From: an uncultured Syntrophobacterales bacterium
GTDB lineage: Bacteria > Desulfobacterota > Desulfobaccia > Desulfobaccales > 0-14-0-80-60-11
NCBI GenBank assembly: GCA_965602785.1
Contig: CBFDAH010000001.1
Coordinates: forward strand, 633 to 64,632
Length of the DNA: 64,000 bases
Direction of reading: 5' to 3'
Shown: positions 41,352-61,631 of the stretch, one piece after another
Position numbering within the stretch: the first letter of the stretch is position 1
How the letters are laid out: the number at the start of each line of letters is the position of its first letter
The notes under the pieces: generated by a model
Told to the model about the DNA's origin: nothing
Seen by the model: the letters and a program-made list of their open reading frames with translations, nothing else
Database searches by the model: none
Made by a program: the position numbers and the translations under genes

Positions 41352-41600
41352 TCAGGCCATGCTGCTCAGGAGACCGAGAGCGGTTGGGGGGCATTCCCGG
41401 GTGGTCCGCCGAAAGCTTTCCTGGGGCGGCGGCAAAAGCACCACCAAGGTCTCCCGGGAGATGCGCCAGGGTCCGGCCCCAAGGCGCACGGCCGGGAGGC
41501 GGCCGTCTCGGATCATGCGATAAATGGTACGCCGGGAGAGGCACAGGATCTGAGCCACTTCATCCGGCCGGAACATCTTTTTTTTCTTAATCATTTCCAT
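41352..41600 (-). CDS. excisionase-family (MerR-like) helix-turn-helix DNA-binding protein
   Basis: Start at ATG 41600 (GGAGG RBS 5 nt upstream). FRPDEVAQILCLSRRTIYRMIRDGRLPAVRLG..WRI matches the excisionase-type HTH pattern. Confidence 0.7.
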   Translation of the reverse strand: MEMIKKKKMFRPDEVAQILCLSRRTIYRMIRDGRLPAVRLGAGPWRISRETLVVLLPPPQESFRRTTRECPPTALGLLSSMA

Positions 41601-42063
41601 AAATACCTCCATCCTTGCTGTTGGCTGATTTTCCCTACTCCGAGGGCCTTGGGACACCTGGTATGCAAGTCACGGGCCTAATATAACTATCTGATATTTC
41701 ATATAAAAAAATTTGCCACCCCGCTTGTTCCCGCAATTGTAGGGGAATTGCCGGACTTTGCCCCTAGAGGCAGAGATCAACTCTAGGGGCAAACCGGGGA
41801 GGGAGGCATCCGAGGCGGGGGGGAGGGGAACGACCCGGTGCGGCCCGGTGCCCCCCTTTTCGGGCGGCAGGGTACGCCCACAGGCTGACACGGAGCCTCA
41901 TCACTTTGAAATACTTATATATTAGCTTCTTCCATAACCCCGTCGACAGAATCCCAGCCTCTGAGGTTGGCACGTGCCGGTGAGGGGGCAGAAAAAGTTG
42001 GTTCGGTGACAACCTGGCACATTTGTTCCGGGGGTTGCCGCGGTTTTTGAAAGAGAGGGTGGC

Positions 42064-42270
42064 ATGCAAGAGGAGATTGGACATATGGAACAAGAGAGGT
42101 TGTTGAGGCCCAGTGAGGTAGCCGGGCGCCTGGGAATCTCCCGCTCTTCGGTATACCGCTGGTTTTGGGAAGGAAAGCTCCGGGGAGTGAAACTGGTCGG
42201 GGGACCGGTAAGGATCTTCGAGAGCGCCGTGTTTGATCAGATGATGGATATGGACTGCCTGGCCTCCTGA
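42064..42270 (+). CDS. excisionase-family helix-turn-helix DNA-binding protein
   Basis: LLRPSEVAGRLGISRSSVYRWFWEGKLRGVKLVGGPVRI is the same HTH type as 41352..41600. Divergently oriented from it. Confidence 0.7.
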   Translation: MQEEIGHMEQERLLRPSEVAGRLGISRSSVYRWFWEGKLRGVKLVGGPVRIFESAVFDQMMDMDCLAS

Positions 42271-42335
42271 GGCTTGGACCTGCTGACCGGTAGCAAAAAA
42301 GAAGACCGGGGGTTTCTCCAGACCACGAGCCCACT

Positions 42336-42815
42336 ATGACGCGGCGATACAAAACCGGACGCAGAAAGTTGGATTTCTACTTCGAGGAAGTGCAGTCCGT
42401 GTATCTGGCCGGTAAGAGCCTGGAGGAAATCCAGGAGTTGTTTCCGGTTACCCTCCCGACTCTGAAGCGCTGGCACAAGGAAGGCCGTTGGGAAGAGAAG
42501 AAACGTCAGGCCCTGGTGTCGCCCCGCTGGCTGGGGGAGGCCCTCCGGGGGGTGCTCCGGGAAAAGACCGGAAAAATCCTCGCCACAGGGGATATGAAGC
42601 CTCAGGAATTAGATGAGATCACCAAGATTGTTACCTTGATCGACCGCCTAGGGAACGGCAGTTGGAACATCAGAGCTGCGGCCCTGGAGGTCATGGACCG
42701 ATTCAGCGAGTTCATCCGGGGTTCGGTGAAGGAACCGGAAGATATCAAACGATTTTCCCTCTGGATGCATGAGTTTTTCCGCATCCTGGAGGAGGACGAC
42801 GAAGCCAAAGGGTAA
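42336..42815 (+). CDS. putative terminase small subunit (Mu gp27 / DUF1804-like HTH protein)
   Basis: Position immediately upstream of the large terminase. N-terminal HTH-like LAGKSLEEIQELFPVTLPTLKRWHKEGRWEEKK. Confidence 0.5.
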   Translation: MTRRYKTGRRKLDFYFEEVQSVYLAGKSLEEIQELFPVTLPTLKRWHKEGRWEEKKRQALVSPRWLGEALRGVLREKTGKILATGDMKPQELDEITKIVTLIDRLGNGSWNIRAAALEVMDRFSEFIRGSVKEPEDIKRFSLWMHEFFRILEEDDEAKG

Positions 42816-42827
42816 AGGAGCCGGGAG

Positions 42828-44354
42828 ATGAATCTCAACAAAAAGCTCAGCAAAACCGTCTTTCGGCAGAGGGCAGACCGGATCCTCATGCGGCTCTCCA
42901 TGGACGTCATGCCCTTCTGGGATGACACCCCGGAGAAGCGGGAGCGACGCCTGAAGCGGGCCGAAGCCGACCCTCTGTTTTTCTGCCGGACATATCTACC
43001 CCATTACTTCTCCCAGTCGCCGGCGCCCTTTCATTATGAATTGGTGCGGTTCATGGAGGACCGAGGAGAAGTGGTGACCCCGACGGCGGTGGCGGCTCCC
43101 CGGGAGTTTGCCAAGAGCACGGTATGCTCCTTCGGTTATGTCCTGCATCAGATCTGCTTCGGTAAACGGCATTTCATCATCATCGGCAGCGACACCGAGG
43201 ACCTGGCCAGCGACCTCACCGGTTACCTCTATCTAGAACTCCTTTATAACGAGAGGCTCCACCAGGATTTCGGGGAGTTGGTGAAGTCCAATAAGGCAGT
43301 GAATGACTTTATAACCGCCAACAACGTCCGGCTAAAGGCAAGGGGCCGGGGTCAGCGCCTCAGAGGCCTAAAGCACCGGCAGTGGCGCCCGGACCTGGTC
43401 ATCCTGGACGACCTGGAAAACGACGTCAACGTGCGCAACCCGGACTTGGTAGAGCAGATTTTGGACTGGGTGCAGTCGGCGGTTTATCCGGCCCTGGAGG
43501 CCACCGGCACCCTCATGGTCATCGGTACCATTTTGCGGCAGCGGAGCGCCCTGCATCTCATGCTAACGAGTCCCGAGGAGCCTTACTGCAACTTTCGGCG
43601 GCGCATTTATCGGGCCTTGCTAGAGGACGGCAGCTCCCTGTGGGAGGCGCGGCATCCAACCGACCGGCTCAGTATGCAAAGGCAGCTCATGGGGACAGTG
43701 GCCTTCAACCGGGAAAAGATGAACGAGCCCATGCCGGTGAGCGGCATGTTCCAGGAGAACTGGGTTCATTACTACCACCCGGACATCTTGAAAGACCGGA
43801 ATTTGCTGGTAGTGGGTTTCTTCGACCCGTCCCTGGAGGCCGGTAGCAGCGCCGACTATAAAGCGGTGGTGACCGTGGGTTTCTCCCGGGAGGAGATGGT
43901 CTTCTATGTGCTGGACGCCTTTATTAAGAAGACTACCCTGGAGCAAACTCTCAGGGCGGTATTCAACCGGCACCGGGAAAACGCTTTCCACCTTCTGGGG
44001 GTGGAGGACAACCTCTTTCAGCGGCTGTTGCTCAAAGAATTCGATCAGGTGGGGCGAGAGCTAGGGGTTTTTTTGCCGGTGAAGGGGGTAACCAACCGGG
44101 TGGCCAAGGAGACCCGGGTGGCCATTCTCTCCCCCTTAATGGAGCGAGGCAAAATCCGCTTTATCCGGGGGCACTCGGACCAGGAGAAGCTCATCGAGCA
44201 GATGCTGTATTTTCCCTCCCGCACCCTGCATGACGACGGGCCGGACGCCCTGGCGGGGGCGGTGCAGTTGGCCCACCAGATGTCGCCAGGGGAGACGGCG
44301 AATTACGAGCCGGTGACGAAACGGGCCTTTGGAGGAGGCCGGGGGGCGTATTGA
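42828..44354 (+). CDS. phage terminase large subunit
   Basis: 508 aa. ATPase motifs AAPREFAKST (Walker A-like) and DLVILDDLEND (Walker B). C-terminal nuclease-like region with DDGPDAL. Confidence 0.8.
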   Translation: MNLNKKLSKTVFRQRADRILMRLSMDVMPFWDDTPEKRERRLKRAEADPLFFCRTYLPHYFSQSPAPFHYELVRFMEDRGEVVTPTAVAAPREFAKSTVCSFGYVLHQICFGKRHFIIIGSDTEDLASDLTGYLYLELLYNERLHQDFGELVKSNKAVNDFITANNVRLKARGRGQRLRGLKHRQWRPDLVILDDLENDVNVRNPDLVEQILDWVQSAVYPALEATGTLMVIGTILRQRSALHLMLTSPEEPYCNFRRRIYRALLEDGSSLWEARHPTDRLSMQRQLMGTVAFNREKMNEPMPVSGMFQENWVHYYHPDILKDRNLLVVGFFDPSLEAGSSADYKAVVTVGFSREEMVFYVLDAFIKKTTLEQTLRAVFNRHRENAFHLLGVEDNLFQRLLLKEFDQVGRELGVFLPVKGVTNRVAKETRVAILSPLMERGKIRFIRGHSDQEKLIEQMLYFPSRTLHDDGPDALAGAVQLAHQMSPGETANYEPVTKRAFGGGRGAY

Positions 44355-44564
44355 AGAAGGTGGGAGGGACCTTGGGAAGGCGTGGCGCCTGAGCCCCTGG
44401 CCCACCCATAACTCATGAAAATTTTTTACAAATATTCTGGAGTGGCGGAACAAACTTCCAACTTTGAACCCTGAACCTTGAACGTAACAAGACTAAGCAA
44501 TCTTGGTCATCAGGCCAAACCAGCCAAATCGGTTTCACCAGCCCGTTGTACCAGAGAGGACGGC

Positions 44565-45823
44565 ATGGGTTTAAAAGATTACTTCGGCAGATGGTTCAAG
44601 TCACAACCGAAGCCCGACACCAGGGAACTGGCAGCCGTGAGCATTCATGACCGATGGAGCGCCTATCCCAGCGTTGGGCTGACCCCTAGGGGCCTGGCCA
44701 GCATTTTCCAGGAGGCGGACCTGGGTGCAGTGCGCCGCCAGATGGAACTTTTTGAGGAGATGGAGGAGAAGGACGCGCATCTGGCGGCCATCCTGCAGAC
44801 CCGCAAGCTGGCGGTCTTAAGTCTGGATTACGAGGTGCTGCCCTACGCCAAAACACCGGAGGACGAGCACATCGCCGAGACGATGGGGGAGATGGTCTGG
44901 GGGATTCCCAACCTGGAGACCGCTTTCCTTGATTTGCTGGATGCCATCGGCAAGGGCTTCGCCCTGGCGGAGATCATCTGGGGAGTAGAACAAGGCCAGG
45001 CTCGGGTGGTGGAACTCAATTGGGTGCCTCAGAAGAAAGTGACCTTTGTGGAGGACCTGGCGCCCCGCCTGATGACGGCGGACGGTCCCTGGCAGGGGGG
45101 GTGGAACTGCCCCCCTGGAAGGTCATCTACCACCGCTACAGGGCGCGGAGCGGGCATGACACCCGGGCGGGAGTCCTTCGAGTGGCGGGCTACATGTATC
45201 TGCTCAAGAATTACGCCCTGAAGGATTGGGCTGCGTTCAACGAGATCTTCGGGATGCCGCTGCGCTTAGGTAAGTACGACCCGGCCTCCACTCCGGCGGA
45301 CCGTGAGGCCCTGATCCAGGCTATCCGCAACCTGGGGTCGGACGCGGCGGGAATCATCAGTAAGAACACGGAGATTGAGTTTGTGGAGACCGCCAACCGG
45401 ATCTCGGGAAGCAACAACCCTTACCAGGTGCTGGCGGACTTTTGCAACCGGGAGATGTCCAAGGCCATTTTGGGACAGACCCTGACCACGGACACCTCCG
45501 GAGGAACGGGAACCTTTGCCGCCGCCAGGGTGCACGCTCAGGTGCGGCGGGATCTGGTGGAAGCGGACGCCCAGGCCCTGGGGCACACCTTGCGGGAGCA
45601 GTTGCTACGGCCGCTGGTGGGCTTCAACTTCGGCTGGGACAAGCCGGTGCCCTGGTTTCGCTTCCGGTACGAGGAAGAAGAGGACCTCAAGACCCTGTCG
45701 GAGGTTTACCGGAACCTGGCACACATGGGGTTACCCATGAGTATGGAACACGTGGCGGAGCGCTTCGGCATCCCTCTGGCCCAAAAGGGCCAGGAGACCT
45801 TAGGGCGGCGCGACGGAAGCTGA
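44565..45823 (+). pseudogene. Mu gp29-type portal protein (DUF935), split by a frameshift at a G7 run
   Basis: The N-terminal half is in the frame of ORF 44478..45221 (start ATG 44565). The C-terminal half is in the frame of ORF 45020..45823 (YALKDWAAFNEIFGMPLRLGKYD..., NPYQVLADFCNREMSKAILGQTLTT). The sense switches at GGGGGGG 45095-45101. Confidence 0.8.
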
Positions 45824-45876
45824 ATAAGCTTCCCATTCCAACCATCGGAGGCGAAAAAACTGGAAGGACGAGGAAG

Positions 45877-46902
45877 ATGACAATGAACAAGGAAATACGG
45901 CTGACGTTGGAGATGGCGGAGTTGCCAAAATGGCTGAGGCTCCTGCCCCTGGGACAAGTGGAGCTGGTGGATGGCCGGCCGCATTTCGACGTGGACCCCG
46001 AATCCCTGGCGGAAATGGTGAAAGCCTTTGCGGCCCGGGGCACGGACCTGGTCATCGATTATGAGCATCAGTCTTTAAAAGGGGTTCAGGCGCCGGCGGC
46101 GGGTTGGATCAAAGACCTGGAAACCCGGGAAGACGGGCTCTGGGCCCTGGTGGAATGGACGGACCAGGCCCAGGAGTATCTGAGCCGTCGGGAGTACCGC
46201 TACTTCTCACCGGTGCTGCGGCTCGACCCGGCCACCCGGCGACCCCAGGAGCTCATGAACATGGCTTTGACTAATGTACCGGCCATTCGGGGGATCGACC
46301 CTCTGGTGGCCAAGTGGGGCGGGGAGGCCCAGGAGCCCCACAACCTCTCAGATGCTCCAGGTTTGGAGGCATGCAAGGAGCGGGATGGGTTGATGACTGA
46401 CCTGAAAATCACGTTGGGGCTACCCCCCGAAGCCGGGGAAAGCGCTCTATGGCAAGAGGCGGCGGAAATCTTCCGGGATCTGGCCCAGCACCTGGGCCTG
46501 CCGGAGGAGGCCACAGCCTCCCAGCTCAAGGGGAGTCTCCTGGCTCTCAAGGACGGGAGTGACCAGGTCATGGCCTTGCAAGAGGAGCTCACGGCCCTGA
46601 AGGACCGGCTGGCCGAAGAAACCGCCATGCGGACGGTGGAGGAGGCCATGCTGGCCGGAAAGGTCAGCCCGGCCCAGAAAAGTTGGGCTTTGACCTATTG
46701 CCGCCAGGACCCGGAGAGCTTCAAGACTTACGTGGAGAAGTCTCCCAAAATCGTGCCCCTAGGCGAACGGCTGAACTTGGGAGAAGAAGGTAACCGGGAA
46801 GATCGGGGACTGACCCCGGAGGAACTGGCCCTGTGCCGGTCCATGAATCTAACCCCGGAAGCGTATTTTCAAGCCAAGGCCAAGATGGCCCAGGCCAAGT
46901 AA
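45877..46902 (+). CDS. Mu I-type prohead protease with C-terminal scaffold region
   Basis: Start moved to ATG 45877. WLRLLPLGQVELVDGRPHFDVD...DLVIDYEHQSL matches the Mu-like prophage I protein. Coiled-coil C-terminal half. Confidence 0.8.
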   Translation: MTMNKEIRLTLEMAELPKWLRLLPLGQVELVDGRPHFDVDPESLAEMVKAFAARGTDLVIDYEHQSLKGVQAPAAGWIKDLETREDGLWALVEWTDQAQEYLSRREYRYFSPVLRLDPATRRPQELMNMALTNVPAIRGIDPLVAKWGGEAQEPHNLSDAPGLEACKERDGLMTDLKITLGLPPEAGESALWQEAAEIFRDLAQHLGLPEEATASQLKGSLLALKDGSDQVMALQEELTALKDRLAEETAMRTVEEAMLAGKVSPAQKSWALTYCRQDPESFKTYVEKSPKIVPLGERLNLGEEGNREDRGLTPEELALCRSMNLTPEAYFQAKAKMAQAK

Positions 46903-46917
46903 CGGAGGTGAGACGAA

Positions 46918-47325
46918 ATGGCAGCTTTAACCAAGGATAGGGCCACGCCATACCGGGACGGCATCGAAATCGAGTTTCCAGTGGCAGCCAACAGCAAGAT
47001 TTACTCCGGCAGCCTGGTGTGCGCCAACACCAGCGGGTACGCGGTGCCAGCGGAGGACACCGCAGGTTTTGCCTTCCTGGGCGTAGCCCTGGAGCAGGTG
47101 GACAACACGGGGGGCGCCGACGGAGTCAAGAAGGTACGCCTCAGACGGACCGGGGTGTTCGAGTTCGACGCCGCCAGCATCACCCAGGACATGGTGGGGA
47201 GCGACATGTTTGCCGTGGACGACCACACCATGGATGACACAATCGGCACCACCAACACCATACGCGTGGGAGTGCTGGTGAAGTACGTGGCCGATACCAA
47301 AGGCTGGATCGATATCAGCAGATAA
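46918..47325 (+). CDS. putative head decoration/cement protein (DUF2190-like)
   Basis: 135 aa between the protease and the major capsid gene. Beta-rich with the GFAFLGVALEQVDNTGG pattern. Assignment is mainly positional. Confidence 0.4.
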   Translation: MAALTKDRATPYRDGIEIEFPVAANSKIYSGSLVCANTSGYAVPAEDTAGFAFLGVALEQVDNTGGADGVKKVRLRRTGVFEFDAASITQDMVGSDMFAVDDHTMDDTIGTTNTIRVGVLVKYVADTKGWIDISR

Positions 47326-47342
47326 CCAGGGAGGTATGAACA

Positions 47343-48239
47343 ATGATCATTAACGCAGACGCCTTGGCCAGAGTCTACACGGCTTTCAGTGCGGTGTTCA
47401 ATAACGCTTTTCAGAGCACCGAGACCTGGTACGAACAGATCGCCATGACGGTGCCGGCCAAGACTCGCATCATGGATTACAAGTTTCTGCTGGACTTCCC
47501 CACGGTGCGGGAATGGATCGGGGACCGGCAAATAAGCTCGCTGGAGCCCAAGGCCTACCAGGTGGAGACCAAGGATTGGGAAGCCACCATTGAAATCGAG
47601 CGCAACGACGTGGAAGACGAGCAGTTGGGGCTATACAACCCCATCATTGCGGCCATGGCCGAGGAAGCCAAACGACACCCGGAAAAGCTCATTGCCAATC
47701 TCATGAAAAACGGTGCCACTTCTTTGTGTTACGACGGGCAACCCTTCTTCAGTGCGGACCACCAGGTGGGGAGCGGGACGGCGTCCAACTTTGATTTCAG
47801 CGACAGCGAAGGCTGGTTCCTCATGGACCAATCCCGGGCCATCAAGCCCTTCCTCTTTCAGATACGCCGGGGAGTGCAACTGGTGCGCATGGACCGGCCG
47901 GACGACGAACACGTCTTTCTGCACAAGAAGTTCCGCTACGGGGTGGACTACCGGGGCGCCGCGGCCTACGGCCTGTGGCAGTTAGCCTTTTGCTCTAAAC
48001 AGGAATTGAATGCCACTAACTATGCCTCGGCCCGGGCGGCCATGATGTCCCAAACCAACGCCGAAGGCATGCCTCTAGGCATCAAGCCCAACCTGCTGGT
48101 GGTGCCGCCGGCCCTGGAGTCCAAGGCCCGGGAAATCCTGCACGCCCAGTTCATTATCGGCTCAGACTCGGTGGGCGGTTCCAAGTCCAACATCTGGCAG
48201 GGCTCGTCGGAGCTCCTGGTAATGCCAGAGCTGGTCTAA
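47343..48239 (+). CDS. major capsid protein, Mu gpT-like
   Basis: 298 aa. FLLDFPTVREWIGDRQISSLEPKAYQVETKDWEATIEIERNDVEDEQLGLYNP matches the gpT family pattern. Confidence 0.8.
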   Translation: MIINADALARVYTAFSAVFNNAFQSTETWYEQIAMTVPAKTRIMDYKFLLDFPTVREWIGDRQISSLEPKAYQVETKDWEATIEIERNDVEDEQLGLYNPIIAAMAEEAKRHPEKLIANLMKNGATSLCYDGQPFFSADHQVGSGTASNFDFSDSEGWFLMDQSRAIKPFLFQIRRGVQLVRMDRPDDEHVFLHKKFRYGVDYRGAAAYGLWQLAFCSKQELNATNYASARAAMMSQTNAEGMPLGIKPNLLVVPPALESKAREILHAQFIIGSDSVGGSKSNIWQGSSELLVMPELV

Positions 48240-48296
48240 ACCTGAATATGATGAGGGGCGGTCACCAGAGCGCCCCTTACTGCACAAGGAGTTGTC

Positions 48297-48638
48297 ATGA
48301 GCTGGTTCGGCGGAATTGTCATCCAAACCGAAAACAGCGTCCCAGGGAACTTTGAGGAGCTCCAGGTGAACGACAGTTCCTCCTGGTTCCAACGGGGCAA
48401 AATCAAACCCACGAGCGGCCCATATGCCGGCTTGTCGGCCCAGGCAGGATTGATTTCCCTGGAAGGTGGGGACATTCGCTTTCGCCTGGACGGTCTGAGT
48501 CCACCCACAAGCACCAGCGGACATTATATGAGCAGTGGCGATACTTTCCTTCTCATCGGCACCCAGGCTTTATTGCAGTTTCGGGCCATCCGGGTGGGAG
48601 TGGAGAACGGCATTTTAACCGCGACTTACTTCTTTTAG
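48297..48638 (+). CDS. phage hypothetical protein
   Basis: 113-aa ORF in the operon orientation. No motif. Confidence 0.45.
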   Translation: MSWFGGIVIQTENSVPGNFEELQVNDSSSWFQRGKIKPTSGPYAGLSAQAGLISLEGGDIRFRLDGLSPPTSTSGHYMSSGDTFLLIGTQALLQFRAIRVGVENGILTATYFF

Positions 48639-48667
48639 AGAAGCCTAGCAGAACAGGGAGGCAAGCG

Positions 48668-48835
48668 ATGTTCACGGGCAAGAAGACCTACATTATGGCA
48701 GCCATTATGGGCCTGGGGGCCTTCGCCCGGGCTATGGGGTGGCTGCAGCAAGACCAGTTCGAACTTCTCATGGGGCTGGCCGGCTCGCTGGGCCTGGCGG
48801 CGCTCCGGTCCGGGGTCTCCAAGACCACCGAATGA
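48668..48835 (+). CDS. small membrane protein (55 aa, holin-like)
   Basis: Not in the ORF track. GGGAGG RBS 7 nt upstream. MFTGKKTYIMAAIMGLGAFARAMGWLQQDQFELLMGLAGSLGLAALRSGVSKTTE has two hydrophobic segments. Its stop lies 1 nt before the next ATG. Confidence 0.5.
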   Translation: MFTGKKTYIMAAIMGLGAFARAMGWLQQDQFELLMGLAGSLGLAALRSGVSKTTE

Positions 48836-48836
48836 C

Positions 48837-49100
48837 ATGAACTACGGCGACCTGGCAGAGCACGTGGGGGTGGTGGTGGCCCTCCTGGGCATCTTCGCAG
48901 GCCTGAGCGGGATGCTGTTCTGGCGGATGCTGGTGCGCATGGAAAAAAAGCTGGACCAGCTCCACGACGCCACCCAACGCTGTCGCTCCAGCCTGGGCGA
49001 ACGGTTCTTAGGGCGGGAGGAGTTCCGCAAGGAAAAGGACGATATCTGGGAGGCCGTCAATGCCCACTCTCATAGCACCGAGGGGCGGGTGGTGCGGTAA
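48837..49100 (+). CDS. single-pass membrane coiled-coil protein (paralog of 61106..61366)
   Basis: N-terminal TM, then RMEKKLDQLHDATQRC...WEAVNAHSHSTEGRVVR. Aligns with 61106..61366 (RMEGKMDTLRQNC...WEALHHHEHDFQGRVRR). Confidence 0.55.
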   Translation: MNYGDLAEHVGVVVALLGIFAGLSGMLFWRMLVRMEKKLDQLHDATQRCRSSLGERFLGREEFRKEKDDIWEAVNAHSHSTEGRVVR

Positions 49101-49133
49101 CCCTCTTGAAGAAAAACACGTAGGAGAAAGACC

Positions 49134-49601
49134 ATGAAGAAGCTGGTTATTGCTCTCATGCTCATTAGCCTGGTGGGTTGCGCTGGTATGCTAACCAAGC
49201 CGCCGGTGGGATGCGAAGAAGCTTTCGTGTGGAAAAGTGGCTTCATGCCCGAGGGACGGGAGTTGTTGGAACTGGGGTTTGCCTCCCTGATCACTGCGGA
49301 GCCCAAATTAAAGCCCCACGTGAAGACCGGGGCACTGAAAGCCTGGCGTTTGGTACATGACGGGACCCTCGGGGGCGCGGTGACGGAATTGTTGGGTTTG
49401 GTCGAGAAGAATCCTCAATATACCCCCCTGGCCCTCTTTGCGCTCCAGCGCCTGGACATGGATCGGAGCCTGAACACGTGCGACCAGGAGGTGCTCTTGT
49501 CCATGTTCCGTAACATCGCCATCTATGCCGGAGCCACGGAGCAGGACTTCACCGCCAGCTTGGCGAGCCTGGTCAGCCCTCCGGCGGTAAAGGACAAATA
49601 G
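49134..49601 (+). CDS. phage lipoprotein
   Basis: Lipobox MKKLVIALMLISLVGCAG. Confidence 0.6.
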   Translation: MKKLVIALMLISLVGCAGMLTKPPVGCEEAFVWKSGFMPEGRELLELGFASLITAEPKLKPHVKTGALKAWRLVHDGTLGGAVTELLGLVEKNPQYTPLALFALQRLDMDRSLNTCDQEVLLSMFRNIAIYAGATEQDFTASLASLVSPPAVKDK

Positions 49602-49602
49602 C

Positions 49603-50025
49603 ATGGCTTACTGTACGGAAAACGATCTCATCACGATGATTTCCCAGGAAGAGCTGGCCGCCCTCACGGCGGAATCCGGGGAGTCACCCGACAGTCTGGT
49701 GGTGGCAGAGGCCATTACCCAGGCCGACGCCGAAATCGACGCCTATCTGGGGACACGTTATACGCTGCCCCTGGCGCCGGTGCCGTCCCAGGTAAAGGGA
49801 CTGTCGGTGGACATGGCCATCTACCACCTCTACTCCCGGCGCAGCGTGGCGCCGTCAGTCAGGCGGCAGAGGTATGAGGCGGCGGTGAGCTTCCTCAAAC
49901 AGGTGGCGGCAGGCCACGTCGTGTTGGAAGGGGCCAGCGGCCTTCTCCCGGAAAGCGAGCGGGTGGAGAGCGAGTTTACCGGCCCCGCCCGGGTTTTTTC
50001 CCGCAACACCCTGGGGGAATGGTAG
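49603..50025 (+). CDS. head-tail connector protein, Mu gp36-like (DUF1320)
   Basis: MAYCTENDLITMISQEELAALT...ADAEIDAYLGTRYTLPL matches the DUF1320 pattern. Confidence 0.7.
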   Translation: MAYCTENDLITMISQEELAALTAESGESPDSLVVAEAITQADAEIDAYLGTRYTLPLAPVPSQVKGLSVDMAIYHLYSRRSVAPSVRRQRYEAAVSFLKQVAAGHVVLEGASGLLPESERVESEFTGPARVFSRNTLGEW

Positions 50026-50031
50026 GAAGCT

Positions 50032-50472
50032 ATGAGCAGCCTTTCCTGGATCACGGTGGAAGACGCGGTGGTGGCCGCCCTGGAGAGCCAACTGAGACCG
50101 GCGGTCAAGACCGTCATGAGCTACCAGGGGAACTGGAGGACTGATCTCAGACAGGAGACCTGGCGGCTACCAGCGGCGCTGGTAATGCTGCGGCGCAGCC
50201 GGTCGGACCAGGTGGGGCTGTCTTCGTATGATCTCACCCTGGACTTCGAGGTGTTGGTGGTGGTGCGGCAATTGCGGGGCGAGGCGGCAGGCCGGCGAGA
50301 AACGGGAGGGGCTTACGACCTCCTGGCAGGGGTGCGGGAAGCCCTGTGGCATCAGGACCTAGGGCTGGAGGTGACACCCCTGGCCCTGGTCCGGGAAGAG
50401 CCGCTCCTGAACGACGGGGAATTCACGGTGTATGCCGCCCACTACCGCACAGCCCTGGTCCAGGACCGGTAA
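50032..50472 (+). CDS. Mu gp37-like virion protein (DUF1834)
   Basis: Position after the DUF1320 gene. LPAALVMLRRS...FEVLVVVRQLRGEAAGRRETGGAYDLLAGVREAL pattern. Confidence 0.6.
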   Translation: MSSLSWITVEDAVVAALESQLRPAVKTVMSYQGNWRTDLRQETWRLPAALVMLRRSRSDQVGLSSYDLTLDFEVLVVVRQLRGEAAGRRETGGAYDLLAGVREALWHQDLGLEVTPLALVREEPLLNDGEFTVYAAHYRTALVQDR

Positions 50473-51802: not shown

Positions 51803-52195
51803 GTGAGGCAAATGTCGAGGATACTGGGAGAGGAACGCCACCGGTTGGCCATCCAGGACCCGATGAGCGGGTCGGTGATCACCCTGTACTTCAGGCGGCC
51901 CACCTCAGAGGAGCGGGTGGCCTATCAACTCTCCGTGTTTCACCTGGACGGAGGTGAGCGGCGCCTGCGCCTCAGCGAGACCCGGCTCAGGTTTGGCTTG
52001 GAAATCCTAACGGGTTTCGAGAGCGGAAATTTTCTTATCCAGGAAAACGGCCAGACCATGAACCTGGACCCTGACCAGCACCCGGACTGGAAAGAGCGCT
52101 TGGGGGAGCACGCCTCGGACCTGGTGTCCTATCTCGGCCAACAAGTGTTTGAGGGCCTGCGGGTCTTAGGACGGGGAGGGCCCGAATGGGGCTGA
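51803..52195 (+). CDS. putative tail assembly chaperone
   Basis: 130 aa, immediately upstream of the tape-measure region. Positional assignment. Confidence 0.4.
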   Translation: MRQMSRILGEERHRLAIQDPMSGSVITLYFRRPTSEERVAYQLSVFHLDGGERRLRLSETRLRFGLEILTGFESGNFLIQENGQTMNLDPDQHPDWKERLGEHASDLVSYLGQQVFEGLRVLGRGGPEWG

Positions 52196-52542
52196 CCGGG
52201 GCTGTTGCAGGAAGTAAAGGGGCTGAGGCCGAGACGTGGGATCTGCTCAAGGAGCTCAGAGCGTTGGCCACAGGTCGCCTCTGCCGAGATGAGCAGCGGC
52301 GCACCTGCCGGGCGGAACACGGCCCCTTTGCCGACTGGGCCTGTGGGACGTGCGCCGAGTATCTCAGACCCGAGGCCATCTCGCCCTGGACCTGGCACCT
52401 CATTTTTTTGCACAGATTGAAAAAAGCCGGGTATCCCTTCCAGGCTAACGATCTGAGCCTGGAAACCTGGCTGCTTTTAGGGCTGGTGGAAGAAGCCCTG
52501 GCCAAACCCAAAGGAGGACCCGGTGCCCAGAGACAATTTTAA
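52186..52542 (+). CDS. phage hypothetical protein (Cys-containing)
   Basis: 118 aa. Own GGAGG RBS 6 nt before ATG 52186. Overlaps both neighbours. C..C...CGTC pattern. Confidence 0.4.
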   Translation: MGLTGAVAGSKGAEAETWDLLKELRALATGRLCRDEQRRTCRAEHGPFADWACGTCAEYLRPEAISPWTWHLIFLHRLKKAGYPFQANDLSLETWLLLGLVEEALAKPKGGPGAQRQF

Positions 52543-55542: not shown

Positions 55543-55559
55543 AATCCGGAAAAGGTTTT

Positions 55560-55602
55560 GAGGGGAGGGCCGGGGGAGCGCGGTTCCCTCGGCCCCCTCC
55601 TC
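55560..55602. repeat. single G/C-tract hairpin unit inside the phage cluster
   Basis: GAGGGGAGGGCCGGGGGAGCGCGGTTCCCTCGGCCCCCTCCTC. Confidence 0.75.
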
Positions 55603-55624
55603 AGAAAAAAGGGAGTGAGACGGC

Positions 55625-55888
55625 ATGTCACGCATTCAATGGGCCCGGGCGTCCCAGTTTAACTGGGTCTTCGACAACCTGGGGGGTACCCCCCTCATGG
55701 CGGCGGTGGCCGGGAAGGCCGCAGGGGCCACGGCCCTGGTGCAGCCGGACGGCACGCTGCGCCTGGAGAGCCCTAATCCGGGAGGGGGCCGGGTGGCCTT
55801 CCTCCGGGGGGTCTGGCGCCAGGAGACGAGCTTTGCCTGGGACGGCTTTTGGGCCGACCCTGTGGACGGGGACCTGACCGATTACTAA
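55625..55888 (+). CDS. 87-aa ORF; probably the detached N-terminus of the giant tail fibre gene (same frame, separated by one TAA)
   Basis: Same reading frame as 55964..59752. Only the TAA at 55886-55888 intervenes, and the 75 nt after it are stop-free. Confidence 0.5.
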   Translation: MSRIQWARASQFNWVFDNLGGTPLMAAVAGKAAGATALVQPDGTLRLESPNPGGGRVAFLRGVWRQETSFAWDGFWADPVDGDLTDY

Positions 55889-55963
55889 CTGGGGGGCTCC
55901 TTCAGCCACCAGGGGGAAGCCACCATTCTCACCCTGGGCACACCCCTGGCCGCGGGGACGCCG

Positions 55964-58900
55964 GTGCAGCTTTTCTATCTGTATGCCACCGGCGATACTG
56001 CCGCCAAATACGACCCTCTCAATAACTATCCCTGTATCCGCCAGGCCTATCGCGGGCGGGAAGACTACACCTACGACTTTGCGGTGGACCGGATGCTGGA
56101 CCTCATGGTCTACCTGCACCTGGCCGGCAGGGAGCGGGGGGAGGACTTCAGCCCCGCCTGCCAGTTCCTCTGGGAGGCGGTGGCAACCCGGGAAGCAAGC
56201 CATACCTCTCCCCTGGTGTACGACACCTTCGAACGGCAACTCTGGGAGCGGGGGGCCTATCTCCTCTACCGGGCCGATACCCGGGAGGGCGATTGCTTCC
56301 AGGCTTTTACCACCGAGTTGGCCCAGGGTGAGCCGGGGCGGGTCCTCCACGTGCGGGCGGACCTCCCGGCTCAAACGGACGGCGCCTGGTGGGGCTATGG
56401 CTTGAACTGGGCGCTCACCGAAGGCCCTTTTGCCGCCATTGACCGGGTGAGCCTGAAACTCCAGGGCAAGGGGTTGAGCCGGCGGCTCCACAATCTCACG
56501 AAATACGGCAGCGGCAGCGCCACTCTGATCTCTGCCGGGGACTATGCCCACCAGGAGCGCAGGTATTATGTGGTGGAGATGGAGACCGGTGGTGAGGTGG
56601 GGGAGGCCACCTTCCGCTGGTCCAAAGACGGCGGGGAGACCTGGGAGGCAACCGGGGTAATCACCGGGGACCGGGAGCACCCGGTGGACCTCTATGGAGA
56701 TGTGTCGGTTTACTGGGAAGGGGGGAGCGGGGCCGACTTTGCCATTGGGGATTACTGGACGTTCTGGGGCGGAGAGCCCGAGGAACACCCCCGCCGGCTG
56801 CTGGTCGTGCTGAACGATTCGATTCCCGGGGACCCGGACCCCGGCAGCTCGGACCACACCTTTGTCCACGCCATTCCGGACCGTTTTCCCGAACTCACCC
56901 CCTTCGAAATCCCCTTCAGCCAGTTCTGGCGACGGGACAACCTCATCGACGACGGGGACCGGTTGCGGGCCACCTGGGGCGCCTGGTACGCCGCCAGCCA
57001 GCAGGGAGAAAATTCCATTTTTATCAGCGACCGGGAGGAGACCGAGGTCATCTCCGGGGACACCTTTTACACCCTGCGCCAGGTGACCTGGGACCTGACG
57101 CCCTATGTGACGACCTTCGGCGCCTGGGTGGGTATCGACACCAACCGGTGCAATTCCTCCGGCCGCACTGACCTGAATTTCCTCATCAAACCGGTGGTCT
57201 CCGGGGCCAGCACCCTGACCCTGAGGGTCAAGGTGAAGGACGCCCAGGGATGTTATTTCTACCAGGACCAGGAAGTCACGGTAAACGCCTGGCAGCGGCT
57301 GACGGTGAACCTGGGGGAGATGCAACTGGAATCGGGTTCCACCCCCTTAACCCACCCCCTCCAGATAGTGGACATTGGCATCCCCGCATCTCCCCCCACC
57401 AACGGCACCTTTTATCTCACCGACCTCAAATTTGACCAGCACCAGACCTTCGCGGGGGCGGAGCGTCTTCGGCTTCTGGAGTTCAAGCTGGAGCAGCAAG
57501 GCATCCCGGACCACGAATGGTGGCTGGACGACGTGGGATTGAATCTGGAGGCGGAAGACCCCTATCCCCTGGTGCCCCGGCTGGCCATTTCTCTCGGACC
57601 CTACGGCCAGAACCCCTGGCGGGGGCCCACCATGGTGCACTACGCGCAGCCCCTGGCCCCTTACCTGATGGGGGCCCTGAACCTGAGCCAGACTTACGTG
57701 AGCCTGCACCGGGACGCCCAGGAAGAATTTCACCGGCGCTACGGGGGAGTGAAGGGGCCCATCCTGCCGGTGCACACCCGGAACGATCTGGAAAATATCG
57801 CGCTCTGCGGCGAGGAGAATTTCGGTACATTCTGCTGGTGGCCGCAGTACCGGGATTACGGCAAGCTGGTGGGCGCCTGGCCCTTCAACGACTCCCCCAC
57901 GGACGCCAGCGGCAAGGGTAACGACGCCTCCTGGGTGGGCACCCCCACGTACACCGCGGGGCTGTCCCAGCCGGGTAATACCTGCGCTGATTGTTCCGGC
58001 ACGCGCCACCTCACCGTGCCCGACGATGACACCCTGGACCTTATAGGCGACTTCACCTTCGAGGCCCTGGTGTATCCCACCAGCGACGGCGCCGGGGGCG
58101 GCATCCTGCACAAGGGGGCCACGGGCGCCTGGGGCGCATACGGCCTGGGGAGGACCGACGACAATAAATTTTCCCTCATCCTGAACGGCTCTGTCATTCT
58201 GACTTCCCCCAGCGCCTACCTCAAGGACAGCTGGTATCACGTGGCGGCCACGCGCCTCGGGAGCGACGTCAAACTTTTCGTCAACGGCTCCGAGGTGGCC
58301 AGTGTTACCTATGGCGACGCCCTTGGAGCAAACAACGACCAGCTCTATTTGGGTCTATGGTTCAGTTCCTCTTACCTGTTTCCGGGCTACCTTGATTTTG
58401 TCCGCATCTACGCCCGGGGCATGGAGGCGGACGAGGTCGCCGGCAGATGGCAAATTGCCCAGGGGACCAAAAACGGCAGCGCCTATCCGGAGGCGGGCCA
58501 TGGCCTGGGGCAATACTGGGCCTTTATGCGCCTGTCCCAATACTATTTCCTCAGCAACGACCCTGGGGCCCAGGAAATCCTGGAAAACTGGCTGGCCTGG
58601 CTGGATACCTGCGGGGCGCCGGAGGGGAATGGCTGGAAAGTTCCCCTCGGTTTTTCGGAATACGGCTTCACCTATGGCTCCTATGACCCGGGAGCTGCCG
58701 CCTCCCTGGCCCTGGGCTGTTTGTATACCTATCTCAGAGGCGGGCAGCCCGCCGCGGCCACCTGGGCCCGGCGCTTGTTAGACGACTTGCGGCTCAACCG
58801 CCAGTGCCAGGAGTATGGCGGGGGCTACAAAAGCGATTACCATTACGCCTGGCTCAACGCCCTGGTGATGCAGGCCTTCGGGATGGCGGCGCATGGCCTC

Positions 58901-59752
58901 ACCGGCCAGGCCCACCCCTTTCCCAGCCTGCCCGAGGACACCGCCCATTTCAACGCCCTGCTGGACTGGCTCTTCCAGCATGCCGGGGACGGAAAACCCA
59001 ATCTCCTCAATGCCGACCTCATTCCCTTCACCTATCTCGAGGCCGAGGACGTCTGGGACTATGCGCCTCACTATGTCTTCATGAGCCAGATGGGGTCTCT
59101 GGAGGGCTTGGTCCTCATGGTGGGCGCGGCCCTGGCCCATGGCAAGGGTACGGGTGACTGGACCTGGTTCGAGCGCCTCTGGCGCTTCGTGCTCCAGGAC
59201 AATCTGGTGTCCCTGGACGCCTCCCGCATCCGGAGCCTCAGCGCGGCCTATCATCTGGCGGGGGTGAAAAACCTGGTGCGAGTGTATTGGGCCGACTATG
59301 ACCAGGATAACTCAAGATACCTGGAAGCCCGGAACGACGGGGCGGTGACCGCCTGGGGGGAGGCGGCGGTGGACGTGGACCTGCGCTATAACGGGCCGGT
59401 GGTTCTGGAGAACCCGGCAGTGGCTCAGCTTCTGGCCGAGCGCCTGTTGAAGCGCCTCTCCTCCCCCTGGGAGGTGGTACGGCTCGACACCTGGCTCGAG
59501 GGGGCGCGCCTGGAGATCGGCGACACCCTGGCGGTGACCTCCCCCTTCCACGGGTTCACCAAGGAAGAATTTACACTTTTCGGCAAGACCCTGGACCTGA
59601 AACGGCAGCGGGTCACCCTGAATCTGGCCCGGCCCTTCGGTCTCACCTGGGCCTGGGCAGTGGACGCCCCGGGCAGCGACTATGACGCCTACGCCATTGA
59701 CCAGGCCAGCAAACTGGACGCCAACTGGAGTTATCGCGCCTACGCCGGTTAA
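55964..59752 (+). CDS. giant tail fibre / host-specificity protein with a LamG (concanavalin-like lectin) domain
   Basis: 1262 aa. The LamG-like region WPFNDSPTDASGKGNDASW...DFTFEALVYP...WYHVAATRLGSDVKLFVNGSEV...LYLG...GYLDFVRIY is followed by a helical repeat region. Confidence 0.7.
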   Translation: MQLFYLYATGDTAAKYDPLNNYPCIRQAYRGREDYTYDFAVDRMLDLMVYLHLAGRERGEDFSPACQFLWEAVATREASHTSPLVYDTFERQLWERGAYLLYRADTREGDCFQAFTTELAQGEPGRVLHVRADLPAQTDGAWWGYGLNWALTEGPFAAIDRVSLKLQGKGLSRRLHNLTKYGSGSATLISAGDYAHQERRYYVVEMETGGEVGEATFRWSKDGGETWEATGVITGDREHPVDLYGDVSVYWEGGSGADFAIGDYWTFWGGEPEEHPRRLLVVLNDSIPGDPDPGSSDHTFVHAIPDRFPELTPFEIPFSQFWRRDNLIDDGDRLRATWGAWYAASQQGENSIFISDREETEVISGDTFYTLRQVTWDLTPYVTTFGAWVGIDTNRCNSSGRTDLNFLIKPVVSGASTLTLRVKVKDAQGCYFYQDQEVTVNAWQRLTVNLGEMQLESGSTPLTHPLQIVDIGIPASPPTNGTFYLTDLKFDQHQTFAGAERLRLLEFKLEQQGIPDHEWWLDDVGLNLEAEDPYPLVPRLAISLGPYGQNPWRGPTMVHYAQPLAPYLMGALNLSQTYVSLHRDAQEEFHRRYGGVKGPILPVHTRNDLENIALCGEENFGTFCWWPQYRDYGKLVGAWPFNDSPTDASGKGNDASWVGTPTYTAGLSQPGNTCADCSGTRHLTVPDDDTLDLIGDFTFEALVYPTSDGAGGGILHKGATGAWGAYGLGRTDDNKFSLILNGSVILTSPSAYLKDSWYHVAATRLGSDVKLFVNGSEVASVTYGDALGANNDQLYLGLWFSSSYLFPGYLDFVRIYARGMEADEVAGRWQIAQGTKNGSAYPEAGHGLGQYWAFMRLSQYYFLSNDPGAQEILENWLAWLDTCGAPEGNGWKVPLGFSEYGFTYGSYDPGAAASLALGCLYTYLRGGQPAAATWARRLLDDLRLNRQCQEYGGGYKSDYHYAWLNALVMQAFGMAAHGLTGQAHPFPSLPEDTAHFNALLDWLFQHAGDGKPNLLNADLIPFTYLEAEDVWDYAPHYVFMSQMGSLEGLVLMVGAALAHGKGTGDWTWFERLWRFVLQDNLVSLDASRIRSLSAAYHLAGVKNLVRVYWADYDQDNSRYLEARNDGAVTAWGEAAVDVDLRYNGPVVLENPAVAQLLAERLLKRLSSPWEVVRLDTWLEGARLEIGDTLAVTSPFHGFTKEEFTLFGKTLDLKRQRVTLNLARPFGLTWAWAVDAPGSDYDAYAIDQASKLDANWSYRAYAG

Positions 59753-59888
59753 GGATGGCAAGGGCGGAGCCGTTATAAGGGCGGGTTTAACACCCGCTCT
59801 TTAAAAAACCATGGGTCAGAGGTCTCTTGGGACCAGGCCCATACAGTGACATTTTGTCAAAGAGATTTTCGAAAAGCGAGGTGGCGCC

Positions 59889-60857
59889 ATGTCTTTAATT
59901 CACCTGCCCCAGGCCAAGTGGGCCAGCGGCACCGGCCGCCAGGTCATCCTGAAGGGCGACTTCGACAAAATCGAGCAGGCGGTGGTGGAAACCTTCGAGC
60001 TGGCCCAGGGCCCCTCCCTGGAATACGTGAGTGCTTCCCAGGTCCAGGTCAACGCCACGGTGGACTGCAAGGCCCGGGTGATGCTCACGGGGTTACCCTC
60101 GCCCCTGCACCGGGGGGTTTTTGTGGACGGAGGCCTGTCCGACGGACGCTACCGGGAGAACGCCACTCCCGCCACTCTGGATGTGGCCAGTCCCGGCAGC
60201 CTCTGGGGCACGGAGAAGGCCAGCCAGTGGTATGCCGTCTATGCGGTGGCGGGCGCCGGGGACACCACCTTCAGCCTGAAAGGCATGCCGGTGATGCGGG
60301 TGTCCTCTCAGGCTACTCAGGTTATCACCCTCAGGAACAACCCCGACACCCTGGACATCGGCTACGGTTTCACCACCAACGAACTGGTGGACGGCAAAGT
60401 CCTGGTCCTTACCGGGGCCTCCCGGGGGCTCATGCGGGCCATTACCGCCAACAACAGCGATAACGCCACCGGGGGCACCATCACCTATGGGGGGAGCGCC
60501 CTCACCCTGGCCCAGGGAGACTGGTTGGTGGGGCTTCCCAAAACGAACTTCGGTTATTTGGGCATGATCCTGAATGACGCCAGCAGCGATCTGGCGCCGT
60601 TTTTCCAGGAGGGGAACGCTTACCGTTACCACACGCACCGGGACCTGGCCCAGGGGGCCATCAACGGCTTTACTGCCTATGACCTGGCCCTGACCGCGCC
60701 CCCCATGGCCCGGCGCCTCATGGGGTATGCCGCGGCCACGGACGGCTATGACCTCAAGCTGGCCGTCTCCTACGACGGCAGCAATGCGGCCTTGATTATC
60801 CATGCCCCCCCCCCCGGATATTGCCCTCCATGGGGTCAGGGGGGCCGTGCCCTTTGA
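59889..60857 (+). CDS. phage tail/fibre-associated protein; the reading frame probably continues to 60945 across a C11 run
   Basis: 322-aa ORF whose last 17 codons follow CCCCCCCCCCC (60805-60815). The +1 frame after the run encodes DIALHGVRGAVPFDCLAPSHQSLYLDNNNTANQVVRITGWEE-stop (60943-60945). Confidence 0.55.
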   Translation: MSLIHLPQAKWASGTGRQVILKGDFDKIEQAVVETFELAQGPSLEYVSASQVQVNATVDCKARVMLTGLPSPLHRGVFVDGGLSDGRYRENATPATLDVASPGSLWGTEKASQWYAVYAVAGAGDTTFSLKGMPVMRVSSQATQVITLRNNPDTLDIGYGFTTNELVDGKVLVLTGASRGLMRAITANNSDNATGGTITYGGSALTLAQGDWLVGLPKTNFGYLGMILNDASSDLAPFFQEGNAYRYHTHRDLAQGAINGFTAYDLALTAPPMARRLMGYAAATDGYDLKLAVSYDGSNAALIIHAPPPGYCPPWGQGGRAL

Positions 60858-60965
60858 TTGCCTGGCGCCGTCCCACCAAAGCCTTTACCTGGACAACAAC
60901 AACACCGCCAACCAGGTGGTGCGGATCACCGGCTGGGAGGAGTAGAAGGATAGGTTGGCACTGTT

Positions 60966-61009
60966 GGGGGGATGGGTCCAGGGACCACGAGCCCCTGCCC
61001 CTTTCCCCA
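60966..61009. repeat. degenerate G/C-tract hairpin unit
   Basis: GGGGGGATGGGTCCAGGGACCACGAGCCCCTGCCCCTTTCCCC. Confidence 0.65.
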
Positions 61010-61105
61010 CATACAATTCCCCCAACGTTGGCTGGAGGCATCCAACCGGGAGCTGGAGCGCAGTTTTCATCTCATCATCACAAACAACTAAAACGGATTG
61101 CAGCC

Positions 61106-61366
61106 ATGACTATATCACTCTTTCCCGCCGCCCTGATTCTCGTCTTCCTGGTGGGCCTCGTCGCCGGGGTTTACGGCGTGATGTTGTGGGGCAAGCTCTC
61201 CCGCATGGAAGGCAAGATGGACACCCTGAGGCAGAACTGCGATCAGCACCAGGAGGACAGCAACACTCGCTTTCTGCCCCGGCTGGAGCACGAAGTGGAG
61301 CACCAGGGTTTGTGGGAGGCTTTGCACCACCATGAACACGATTTTCAGGGTCGGGTGAGGCGGTAG
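61106..61366 (+). CDS. single-pass membrane coiled-coil protein (paralog of 48837..49100)
   Basis: In-frame ATG 61106 inside track ORF 60821..61366. MTISLFPAALILVFLVGLVAGVYGVMLWGKLSRMEGKMDTLRQNC...WEALHHHEHDFQGRVRR. Confidence 0.55.
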   Translation: MTISLFPAALILVFLVGLVAGVYGVMLWGKLSRMEGKMDTLRQNCDQHQEDSNTRFLPRLEHEVEHQGLWEALHHHEHDFQGRVRR

Positions 61367-61386
61367 AAATTAGCTGAACAGTCCTT

Positions 61387-61428
61387 GGGGAATGGGGTGA
61401 GGGCTCCAAGGCCCCTTGCCCCTCTCCC
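61387..61428. repeat. degenerate G/C-tract hairpin unit
   Basis: GGGGAATGGGGTGAGGGCTCCAAGGCCCCTTGCCCCTCTCCC. Confidence 0.65.
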
Positions 61429-61454
61429 GACCCCCGCTCAGGGAGGTAAGACAG

Positions 61455-61631
61455 ATGTACCGGTGTCCTTTTTGTGCTTCGATTATTACCCTGCTCAACA
61501 GGTTCGAGTTTGCCTGTCCGGTGTACCGGCAGCTCGTGGGAGTAATGGCGGACGGCCCCTTGCCCCGGCTGGTCCGGGCGGCGCCTGATTCCCGCCGAGC
61601 CTGGGCCACACAGTATCTCAAGGCCAACTAA
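61455..61631 (+). CDS. small hypothetical protein (58 aa, CPFC...C motif)
   Basis: In-frame ATG 61455 with a GGAGG RBS 8 nt upstream. Last ORF of the plus-strand block. Confidence 0.35.
   Translation: MYRCPFCASIITLLNRFEFACPVYRQLVGVMADGPLPRLVRAAPDSRRAWATQYLKAN

Follow-up and report, generated by a model that had tools for sequence, protein, structure and literature searches.

Gene transfer agents (GTAs) of the RcGTA type, found in Rhodobacter capsulatus and Caulobacter (Rhodogtaviriformidae), are encoded by structural-only operons of 15-20 kb that lead from the terminase to a host-recognition protein, with an HK97-type portal, protease and capsid (g3-g5). Their tape measure and tail are short and their central tail protein is gpJ/g15-like, and they are inherited vertically at a conserved site across their host clade under purifying selection. 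PBSX of Bacillus subtilis is another chromosomally fixed, non-propagating particle locus of phage origin, conserved within its host group, whose product is a killing particle carrying 13 kb of host DNA. In lateral transduction, the prophages of Staphylococcus aureus package adjacent chromosomal DNA in situ by pac-initiated headful packaging, and the Mu terminase packages from the integrated copy without excision. Five genetically distinct GTA types were counted in 2024 (PMC11409702), and the ICTV viriform paper describes GTAs as under-sampled and the number of independent domestications as an open question (PMC9953437). Here we describe a locus of about 20 kb (positions 41352-61631) in a stretch of 64 kb from an uncultured Desulfobaccales bacterium; this whole stretch is called the window, and all coordinates are window positions. 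The locus had been predicted to be a structural-only Mu-like particle locus made of two divergent helix-turn-helix (HTH) genes and a plus-strand block, either a decaying prophage or a locus kept by its host, and the open reading frame (ORF) listing and profile searches against Pfam and PHROGs (with NCBIfam added for orphan proteins) confirmed this layout, the two divergent genes being of the HTH_17 family and the block a single plus-strand operon. The only GTA reported from the same phylum, Dd1 of Desulfovibrio desulfuricans (PMC11409702, PMC9953437), belongs to a different class and is known from particles and marker transfer.

We found that this block has occupied the ftsH site of the Desulfobaccales since before the species diverged and has been kept intact by selection. 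In one genome per GTDB species, a search with an alignment of the large terminase (TerL) returned 73 loci (a single TerL query returned none), and tblastn with all window proteins showed that 52 of these share the gene order of the window (53 related loci including L001). The block was thereby located in 52 species-level Desulfobaccales genomes (GTDB representatives), and also in metagenome contigs; the cultured Desulfobacca acetoxidans DSM 11109 did not appear among the matches. Among the 38 loci with enough flank to be informative, ftsH lay no more than 3 kb from the left end in 34, within the neighbourhood ftsH-folP-cdaA-ybbR, so that insertion at varied sites, a trait of Mu-like phages, was not observed. 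TerL had 857 database relatives at E<=1e-20, and the best 120 of these were all 67-86% identical and came from Desulfobaccales-type metagenome-assembled genomes (MAGs), some of them in contigs of 0.3-2.5 Mb. A metagenome scan anchored on ftsH, which was unbiased by phage genes and was swamped by distant FtsH sequences, found the block in all three informative close contigs and in none of about 70 contigs of other lineages with the same ftsH-folP operon.

The element has also diverged together with its host. Across 27 genomes, distances derived from TerL, portal, gpT and the decoration protein matched those derived from CdaA, FolP and FtsH (Mantel r 0.926, with 0 of 2000 permutations as high), and neighbour-joining trees of the element and the host had 18 of 24 splits in common against 0.25 expected. 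In eleven genome pairs analysed by the Nei-Gojobori method, the ratio of nonsynonymous to synonymous divergence (dN/dS) was 0.05-0.3 for every element gene, a range like that of the host neighbours, and the synonymous divergence (dS) of the element equalled that of its neighbours in each pair, with values of 0.04-0.19 and 0.13-0.16, respectively, for L023-L026, and of 0.4-1.2 and 0.7-0.8 for the window and L004. The GC content at third codon positions (GC3) of the element followed that of its flanks from 0.44 to 0.85 (r 0.87). Core genes were intact in at least 90% of the 54 loci scored, and the breaks lay mostly in long-read MAGs in which host genes were fragmented too. Terminase, portal and capsid (dN/dS of gpT, 0.07-0.17) were constrained as much as the tail, which indicates that DNA packaging itself is under selection; with its full, constrained head and packaging module, the locus is not an R- or F-type tailocin. 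A shared chromosomal site and purifying selection were the outcome that the original prediction had named as support for domestication and, together with the co-divergence, the equal dS and the intact genes, they favour at clade level its alternative of a locus kept by the host.

Phage relatives were present in IMG/VR, which holds just three fragments of the Desulfobaccales element itself. The 38-kb contig L187 (UViG 3300018080_000334) encodes homologues, at 32-52% identity, of the small-terminase (TerS) candidate, TerL, portal, protease, decoration protein, gpT, gp36 and the 430-aa tube, and also a Mu transposase (Mu-transpos_C, DDE_2), a MuB-like ATPase, GemA, MuF and MuG. In contigs L205 and L206 (33-40 kb), MuF, the tube and both chaperones are followed by a tape measure of 814-817 aa (TMP_3, E 1.5e-23) and then by a Phage-tail_3 plus Rcc01698_C protein; MuF is present in L210 as well. 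Mu-like siphophages, including the Pseudomonas DMS3/D3112 group (TerL, 31% identical), have in common with the locus TerL, portal, protease/scaffold, decoration protein, gpT and gp36, to which L187, L205 and L206 add the 430-aa tube and the chaperones, at 31-60% identity. Because these relatives share the head and tube genes and keep MuA, MuB, GemA, MuF and a long tape measure, the element is a derivative of a Mu-like transposable siphophage, from which A, B, MuF and the early genes have been lost and in which the tape measure has been cut to about 250 aa. It is not itself a Mu-like phage, since it has no A/B, no MuF and one fixed site, whereas such phages insert at random sites and also carry a repressor, ner, GemA, Mor and an endolysin.

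These absences, most of which had been noted at the outset, were upheld by every search made. No transposase, integrase, repressor, replication or lysozyme family was matched in the locus by Pfam or PHROGs, and tblastn with the c repressor, ner, A, B, GemA, Mor, endolysin, Rz and F of DMS3 gave no match in the window or in 80 related loci; MuF (gp30), MuA and MuB were likewise missing from the window and the related loci searched. Replication, integration and lysogeny modules were lacking from the window and from about 50 related elements. Representatives of all 69 clusters of extra ORFs (>=140 aa, inside related elements) included no mobility, replication or repressor family, and their only recognised domains were of the peptidoglycan hydrolase and tailspike types. 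As predicted, there was no tRNA in the 64 kb, and no flanking direct repeats apart from REP-like families. Adjacent MuA/MuB genes, a patchy presence with varied pseudogenes, or a transposase or integrase domain in the hypothetical ORFs, which had been named in advance as counter-evidence, were not found, and neither was relaxed selection across the clade.

Set against RcGTA, the locus is alike in its gene order, size, mode of inheritance and short tape measure, and its central tail protein has a weak match to Phage-tail_3, which in the phage relatives is combined with Rcc01698_C. The head, by contrast, is non-homologous (Portal_Mu, gpT and a Mu I protease), the tube is a 430-aa duplicated one of the T5/P74-26 type, the TerS candidate apparently retains DNA binding, the phylum is another, and the function is a putative one. 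The RcGTA analogy drawn originally thus stands for architecture and evolutionary mode but not for homology, and the locus is not a member of the RcGTA family because its head, with portal, I protease/scaffold, gpT, gp36 and gp37, is Mu-type. An AlphaFold2 model of the tube, built on 38 homologues, was used for a fold search against the PDB, in which the best matches were the P74-26 tube (8ed0, E 2e-6) and the T5/DT57C pb6 tubes (a sequence search of the PDB with the tube gave no match). Since no sheath was among these matches, and no sheath gene was found in the locus, the tail is predicted to be non-contractile, with a duplicated-domain tube. At 0.15 nm per residue, the 253-aa tape measure predicts a tail length of about 38 nm.

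We consider it probable, with a good deal of room for doubt, that the element is a vertically inherited, domesticated particle locus of Mu-like ancestry that works like a GTA, and regard it as a strong candidate for a new, independently evolved one. According to this proposal, a Mu-like siphophage derivative that had lost its transposase A, MuB, early region and MuF, and whose tape measure had shrunk to about one third, became fixed beside ftsH in an ancestor of the Desulfobaccales, where purifying selection has kept every head, packaging and tail gene. The two HTH_17 proteins, perhaps with the adjacent REC-TPR regulator, would turn on the single operon, part of the population would produce short-tailed, DNA-filled particles, the Mu-type terminase would fill the heads with chromosomal DNA in situ, and the particles would deliver this DNA to related cells via LamG-bearing tail proteins. 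Because Mu packages integrated copies and the TerS candidate seems to have retained DNA binding, packaging may begin at the locus and continue into the host DNA beside it; transfer would then be regional and not random. In situ pac packaging of this kind is the mechanism of lateral transduction, although the S. aureus prophages are complete and mobile whereas the locus is without means to excise or replicate. It is conceivable, and in our judgement slightly doubtful, that the locus represents a sixth, independently domesticated GTA family, the first from a Mu-like transposable phage and the first gene-defined in the Thermodesulfobacteriota, for which in-situ packaging would have been a pre-adaptation and whose transfer may be biased to the locus-adjacent chromosome. 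Full-text literature searches returned no paper linking gene transfer agents with Desulfobacca, Desulfobaccales or Desulfobacterota. The locus offers a well-supported GTA candidate whose phage ancestry and host phylum both differ, and in which the intermediate steps (loss of A/B, early genes and MuF, and of two thirds of the tape measure) are visible against phage relatives, and a test case of whether in situ Mu-type terminase packaging can turn a dead prophage into an exporter of host DNA; if true, it would be relevant to how genes move among the acetate-oxidising and syntrophic sulfate reducers that live in sediments and soils.

Several points weigh against a GTA function. Particle production, the packaged DNA, its transfer and its regulation are what we infer from the genes, the window copy is broken in three of them, and the window locus contains no peptidoglycan hydrolase. 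The carriers are nearly all MAGs, and the ftsH-anchored scan yielded just the three informative close contigs. In four of the 38 informative loci (L011, L043, L046 and L075) the gene to the left is another one, and in L075 an HdrA-like gene lies inverted on that side, which points to local rearrangements near the element. Known GTA small terminases are said to lack a DNA-binding domain (PMC11841831), unlike the TerS candidate, which matches a 'DNA binding protein' family and seems to have an HTH-like N-terminus, the latter recognised by eye only. Its description as gp27-like agrees with its position and finds no support in Pfam or NCBIfam; no PDB sequence match was obtained either. Finally, the particles might hold the whole 20-kb locus, unlike those of classical GTAs, because the head gene set looks complete and Mu-sized, including a scaffold/protease and a decoration protein.

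Another reading is a self-transducing stationary element, which we judge unlikely, if the least so among the alternatives. Here, a pac-directed Mu-type terminase would start at a fixed site in the locus and, as in lateral transduction, fill Mu-sized heads with the locus and adjacent host DNA, homologous recombination through the flanks would replace the locus in related cells, and persistence would in part serve the element itself and not the host. The family match of the TerS candidate, the conserved sequence motifs at the left end, the established packaging of integrated copies by Mu, a complete head module and phage relatives with genomes of 33-40 kb, about twice the size of the locus, are all in keeping with such an element, and a fixed site and co-divergence with the flanks would be expected of it too. 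The depth of the co-phylogeny and the equal dS show, however, that such transfer, if it occurs, has stayed within species.

From purifying selection it is evident that the genes are in use but not to what end, and a domesticated particle could also kill in the manner of PBSX, act as a decoy for related phages or protect against them, or release DNA for biofilm. The receptor-binding-type proteins (LamG, Ig-like, beta-helix/S74) are variable in the fashion of bacteriocin-like particles. We nevertheless hold this to be quite improbable: terminase, portal and capsid are constrained like the tail, so that DNA packaging is selected, and the extra ORFs of the elements include no toxin or defence family (PADLOC was not searched). 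PBSX itself is unrelated in sequence and, unlike the locus, has a repressor, lysis genes and a contractile tail.

Three ORF lesions, unless they were sequencing errors, had inclined the original prediction towards an ordinary defective Mu-like prophage that decays after deletion of its early region, and the absence of mobility and lysogeny genes also speaks for such a prophage. All three lesions were located exactly (Table 1), and two of them were seen in independent assemblies. The exact TerL of the window occurs on nine other contigs, six of which were read. The long portal run, G7, was also present in the independent JGI contig L215 (99.90% identical), whereas G5 and an intact portal of 418 aa were found in L214 (an NCBI MAG, 99.88% identical over 21.5 kb) and in the Logan contigs L218 and L219 (99.1%). 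As breaks in other loci are concentrated in long-read MAGs, the homopolymer frameshifts had been suspected of being nanopore errors; for the portal, the suspicion was rejected on these observations, by which its frameshift is real, recent and polymorphic among strains. The in-frame stop codon of the central tail protein recurred in the independent Illumina contig L080 (99.92% identical); in the window this protein is split into 87 and 1262 aa, and its homologues are continuous (1375-1411 aa). L080 stops at 60797, just before the C11 run, which is the longest homopolymer in the 64 kb. Removal of one C from this run yields a protein of 351 aa, which matches its L077 and L079 homologues over the whole length (63.5%), and the run could be a slippage-prone switch or an error-prone site. 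The three lesions are thus real or probable, at strain level, and very recent, because sister strains that are 99.1-99.9% identical have an intact portal. This strain's copy is probably non-functional now, by the look of its reading frames, and the damage far younger than the element, a long-kept element caught being lost in one strain. The lean to decay therefore holds for this strain and not for the clade, where the same site in dozens of species, the co-divergence, the equal dS, dN/dS of 0.05-0.3 and genes intact in at least 90% of loci have already refuted it; as an account of the element, decay is very improbable. An active temperate phage that integrates beside ftsH by host recombinases and spreads horizontally would explain the fixed site and the excisionase-type HTH_17 genes at the edge, but is even less credible, given that att repeats, tRNA and replication, repressor or lysis enzyme genes are lacking, that the element tree and dS are those of the host, and that IMG/VR holds so few fragments.

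Table 1. Features of the locus and REP-like sites in the window.
Feature	Position	Strand	Evidence and remarks
REP-like hairpin host sites	5066-5106, 22727-22768, 22856-22908, 25328-25370, 26784-26823, 31277-31316		intergenic
HTHa, HTH_17/AlpA-type DNA-binding	41352-41597	-	Pfam HTH_17 E 9e-13; divergent from operon
Paired CCCTAG(A/G)G palindromes, divergent control region	41757-41797	.	conserved in HTHa-HTHb intergenic alignment of 11 genomes
GTGACAA-N10-TTGT(C) palindrome, ~35 nt upstream of HTHb	42006-42029	.	conserved block, 11-genome intergenic alignment
HTHb, small HTH_17 protein, operon gene 1	42064-42270	+	Pfam HTH_17 E 1e-10
TerS candidate, 159 aa, Mu gp27 position	42336-42815	+	phrog_4151 'DNA binding protein' E 8e-11
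Large terminase TerL	42828-44354	+	phrog_38 E 5e-92
Mu-type portal, two frames	44565-45823	+	Pfam Portal_Mu on both halves
Portal +2 frameshift, G7 for G5	45095-45101	+	G5 in all in-frame relatives
Mu I-type protease/scaffold	45853-46902	+	Pfam Mu-like_Pro E 4e-78; L214 gene call starts at equivalent of 45883
Head decoration/structural protein	46918-47325	+	phrog_1731 E 1e-36; homologues with faint Phage_cement_2
Major capsid protein, Mu gpT type	47343-48239	+	Pfam Mu-like_gpT E 5e-105
Variable head-neck region: u113, 55-aa transmembrane (TM) protein, 87-aa tm87a, 155-aa lipoprotein	48297-49601	+	no strong family match
Head-tail joining proteins, Mu gp36 and gp37 types	49603-50472	+	Phage_Mu_Gp36 E 9e-35, Phage_Mu_Gp37 E 4e-19
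Tail tube, 430 aa, duplicated-domain T5 pb6/P74-26 type	50509-51801	+	AlphaFold2 model pLDDT 67.7; PF18906 on homologues
Two overlapping small ORFs, tail-chaperone position	51803-52542	+	flanked by tube and tape measure genes
Short tape measure candidate, 253 aa	52523-53284	+	by position
Distal tail proteins, 121 aa and 560 aa	53294-55542	+	conserved; dN/dS 0.05-0.20
Central tail/host-recognition protein, 1375 aa in relatives, split	55625-59752	+	Laminin_G_3 E 2e-23, weak Phage-tail_3
In-frame TAA, central tail protein	55886-55888	+	replaces conserved Tyr
Tail/fibre protein, 351 aa if frame restored, 322(+) aa as read	59889-60945	+	homologues in L077, L079
C11 run in 351-aa tail/fibre gene	60805-60815	+	C10 restores 351-aa frame
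tm87b, 86 aa, right-end paralogue of tm87a	61106-61366	+	one TM helix, coiled coil, C-terminal HEH..GRVxR; holin-like
Small Cys-rich ORF, 71 aa, last conserved before host DNA	61416-61631	+	~60% identical ORFs at same place in L078, L221

At the left edge, HTHa was kept in all related loci, with dN/dS of 0.10-0.17 in most pairs and 0.50 between the window and L004, and HTHb was conserved as well (0.05-0.31). The paired palindromes between the two genes are a candidate operator or pac-type site, and the palindrome closer to HTHb, which takes the perfect form GACAA-N10-TTGTC in L001 and L010, is a candidate for the operator of the operon promoter. For the conserved TGGCAC near HTHb, a sigma-54 interpretation was discarded, as the -12 element is kept in the closest relatives only and the palindrome is kept beyond them. 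The TerS candidate is 61-83% identical across most of the clade and 36-53% identical in divergent ftsH-adjacent loci (dN/dS 0.07-0.19). One subclade (L019:13281-14078, L026, L032, L034, L038, L052 and L072) has a 265-aa papain-family gene (Peptidase_C1) between portal and protease/scaffold.

In the variable region between capsid and gp36, other lineages carry LamG, Ig-like or CarboxypepD_reg ORFs instead of the window genes, where tm87a is a TM/coiled-coil protein and the 155-aa lipoprotein was assigned from the lipobox in its sequence. Judging from their sequences, the lipoprotein and the membrane proteins of 55 and 87 aa may have a role in lysis as a holin/spanin-like set. tm87a (48837-49100) and tm87b are paralogues of 86-87 aa with one TM helix, a coiled coil and a conserved C-terminal LWEAL..HEH...GRVxR motif, and they match no known family. 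The six right-side loci that were examined (L077-L079 and L220-L222) all keep tm87b at their right end; in another subclade, PG_binding_1 or CHAP-like genes come after the right-end 87-aa gene. The 71-aa Cys-rich ORF had no family match in Pfam or PHROGs.

Among the tail genes, the ORFs at the chaperone position have homologues 36-49% identical at the same place in phage contigs L205-L211, and tape measure homologues measure 248-258 aa in most gene-called loci and 179 aa in L079, a nanopore MAG locus. Pfam, PHROGs and NCBIfam gave no family for the tape measure or the 121-, 560- and 351-aa proteins, and PDB sequence searches with the 560-aa and 1375-aa proteins were empty. In the divergent subclade formed by L045, L046 and L047, the head genes are kept and other genes stand at the place of the tube and tape measure, e.g. 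one for an 832-aa protein in L045, which suggests replacement of the tail module at the fixed site. L045 and L047 are ftsH-adjacent, and no ftsH was found left of L046.

Both flanks were as predicted. On the left, the REC-TPR regulator is followed by FtsH and FolP, then CdaA and YbbR (the latter two named from Pfam matches on homologues in L001 and L214). The REC-TPR response regulator (39977-41206, minus strand), which is under purifying selection (dN/dS 0.10-0.17), separates ftsH from the element in a single coherent subclade, and could control the locus or be an unrelated insertion. In L001 (3975-5021), and in this genome only, an IS630-type transposase (DDE_3) unrelated to the element lies between folP and ftsH. 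On the right, an HdrA-like ORF begins at 62324, whose homologues in L077 and L221 carry Pyr_redox_2/Fer4 and adjoin FlpD; the right flank of the window's subclade comprises this large HdrA-like protein, FlpD and pyrG (CTP synthase), and that of another subclade CvpA-MazG. The remaining window genes are of ordinary metabolism. The G-rich REP-like hairpins, of the form GGGGGAGGGGG, about 20 nt, CCCCCTCCCCC, are scattered in the intergenic DNA of host and element alike; the host-type hairpins reported within the block are indeed of the same type as those at the six host sites, but they occupy at least five of its intergenic gaps and not four.

TerL relatives at 53-58% identity were considered as Mu-like prophages and rejected, as they belong to a different element with an HK97-type head. 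This is a cluster of about 7.5 kb (L063:10001-17540, L058, L066 and L055) with TerL, an HK97-type portal, an HK97 capsid, three small genes and a Phage_tube_2 tube, to which the 430-aa tube aligned weakly by hhalign (E 4e-4). It has host genes upstream of TerL (L063, L055) and no tape measure or baseplate after the tube (L063, L066, L058), and it occurs in Desulfarculales, including the cultured Desulfocarbo indianensis SCBM, where it is possibly a second structural-only phage-derived locus.

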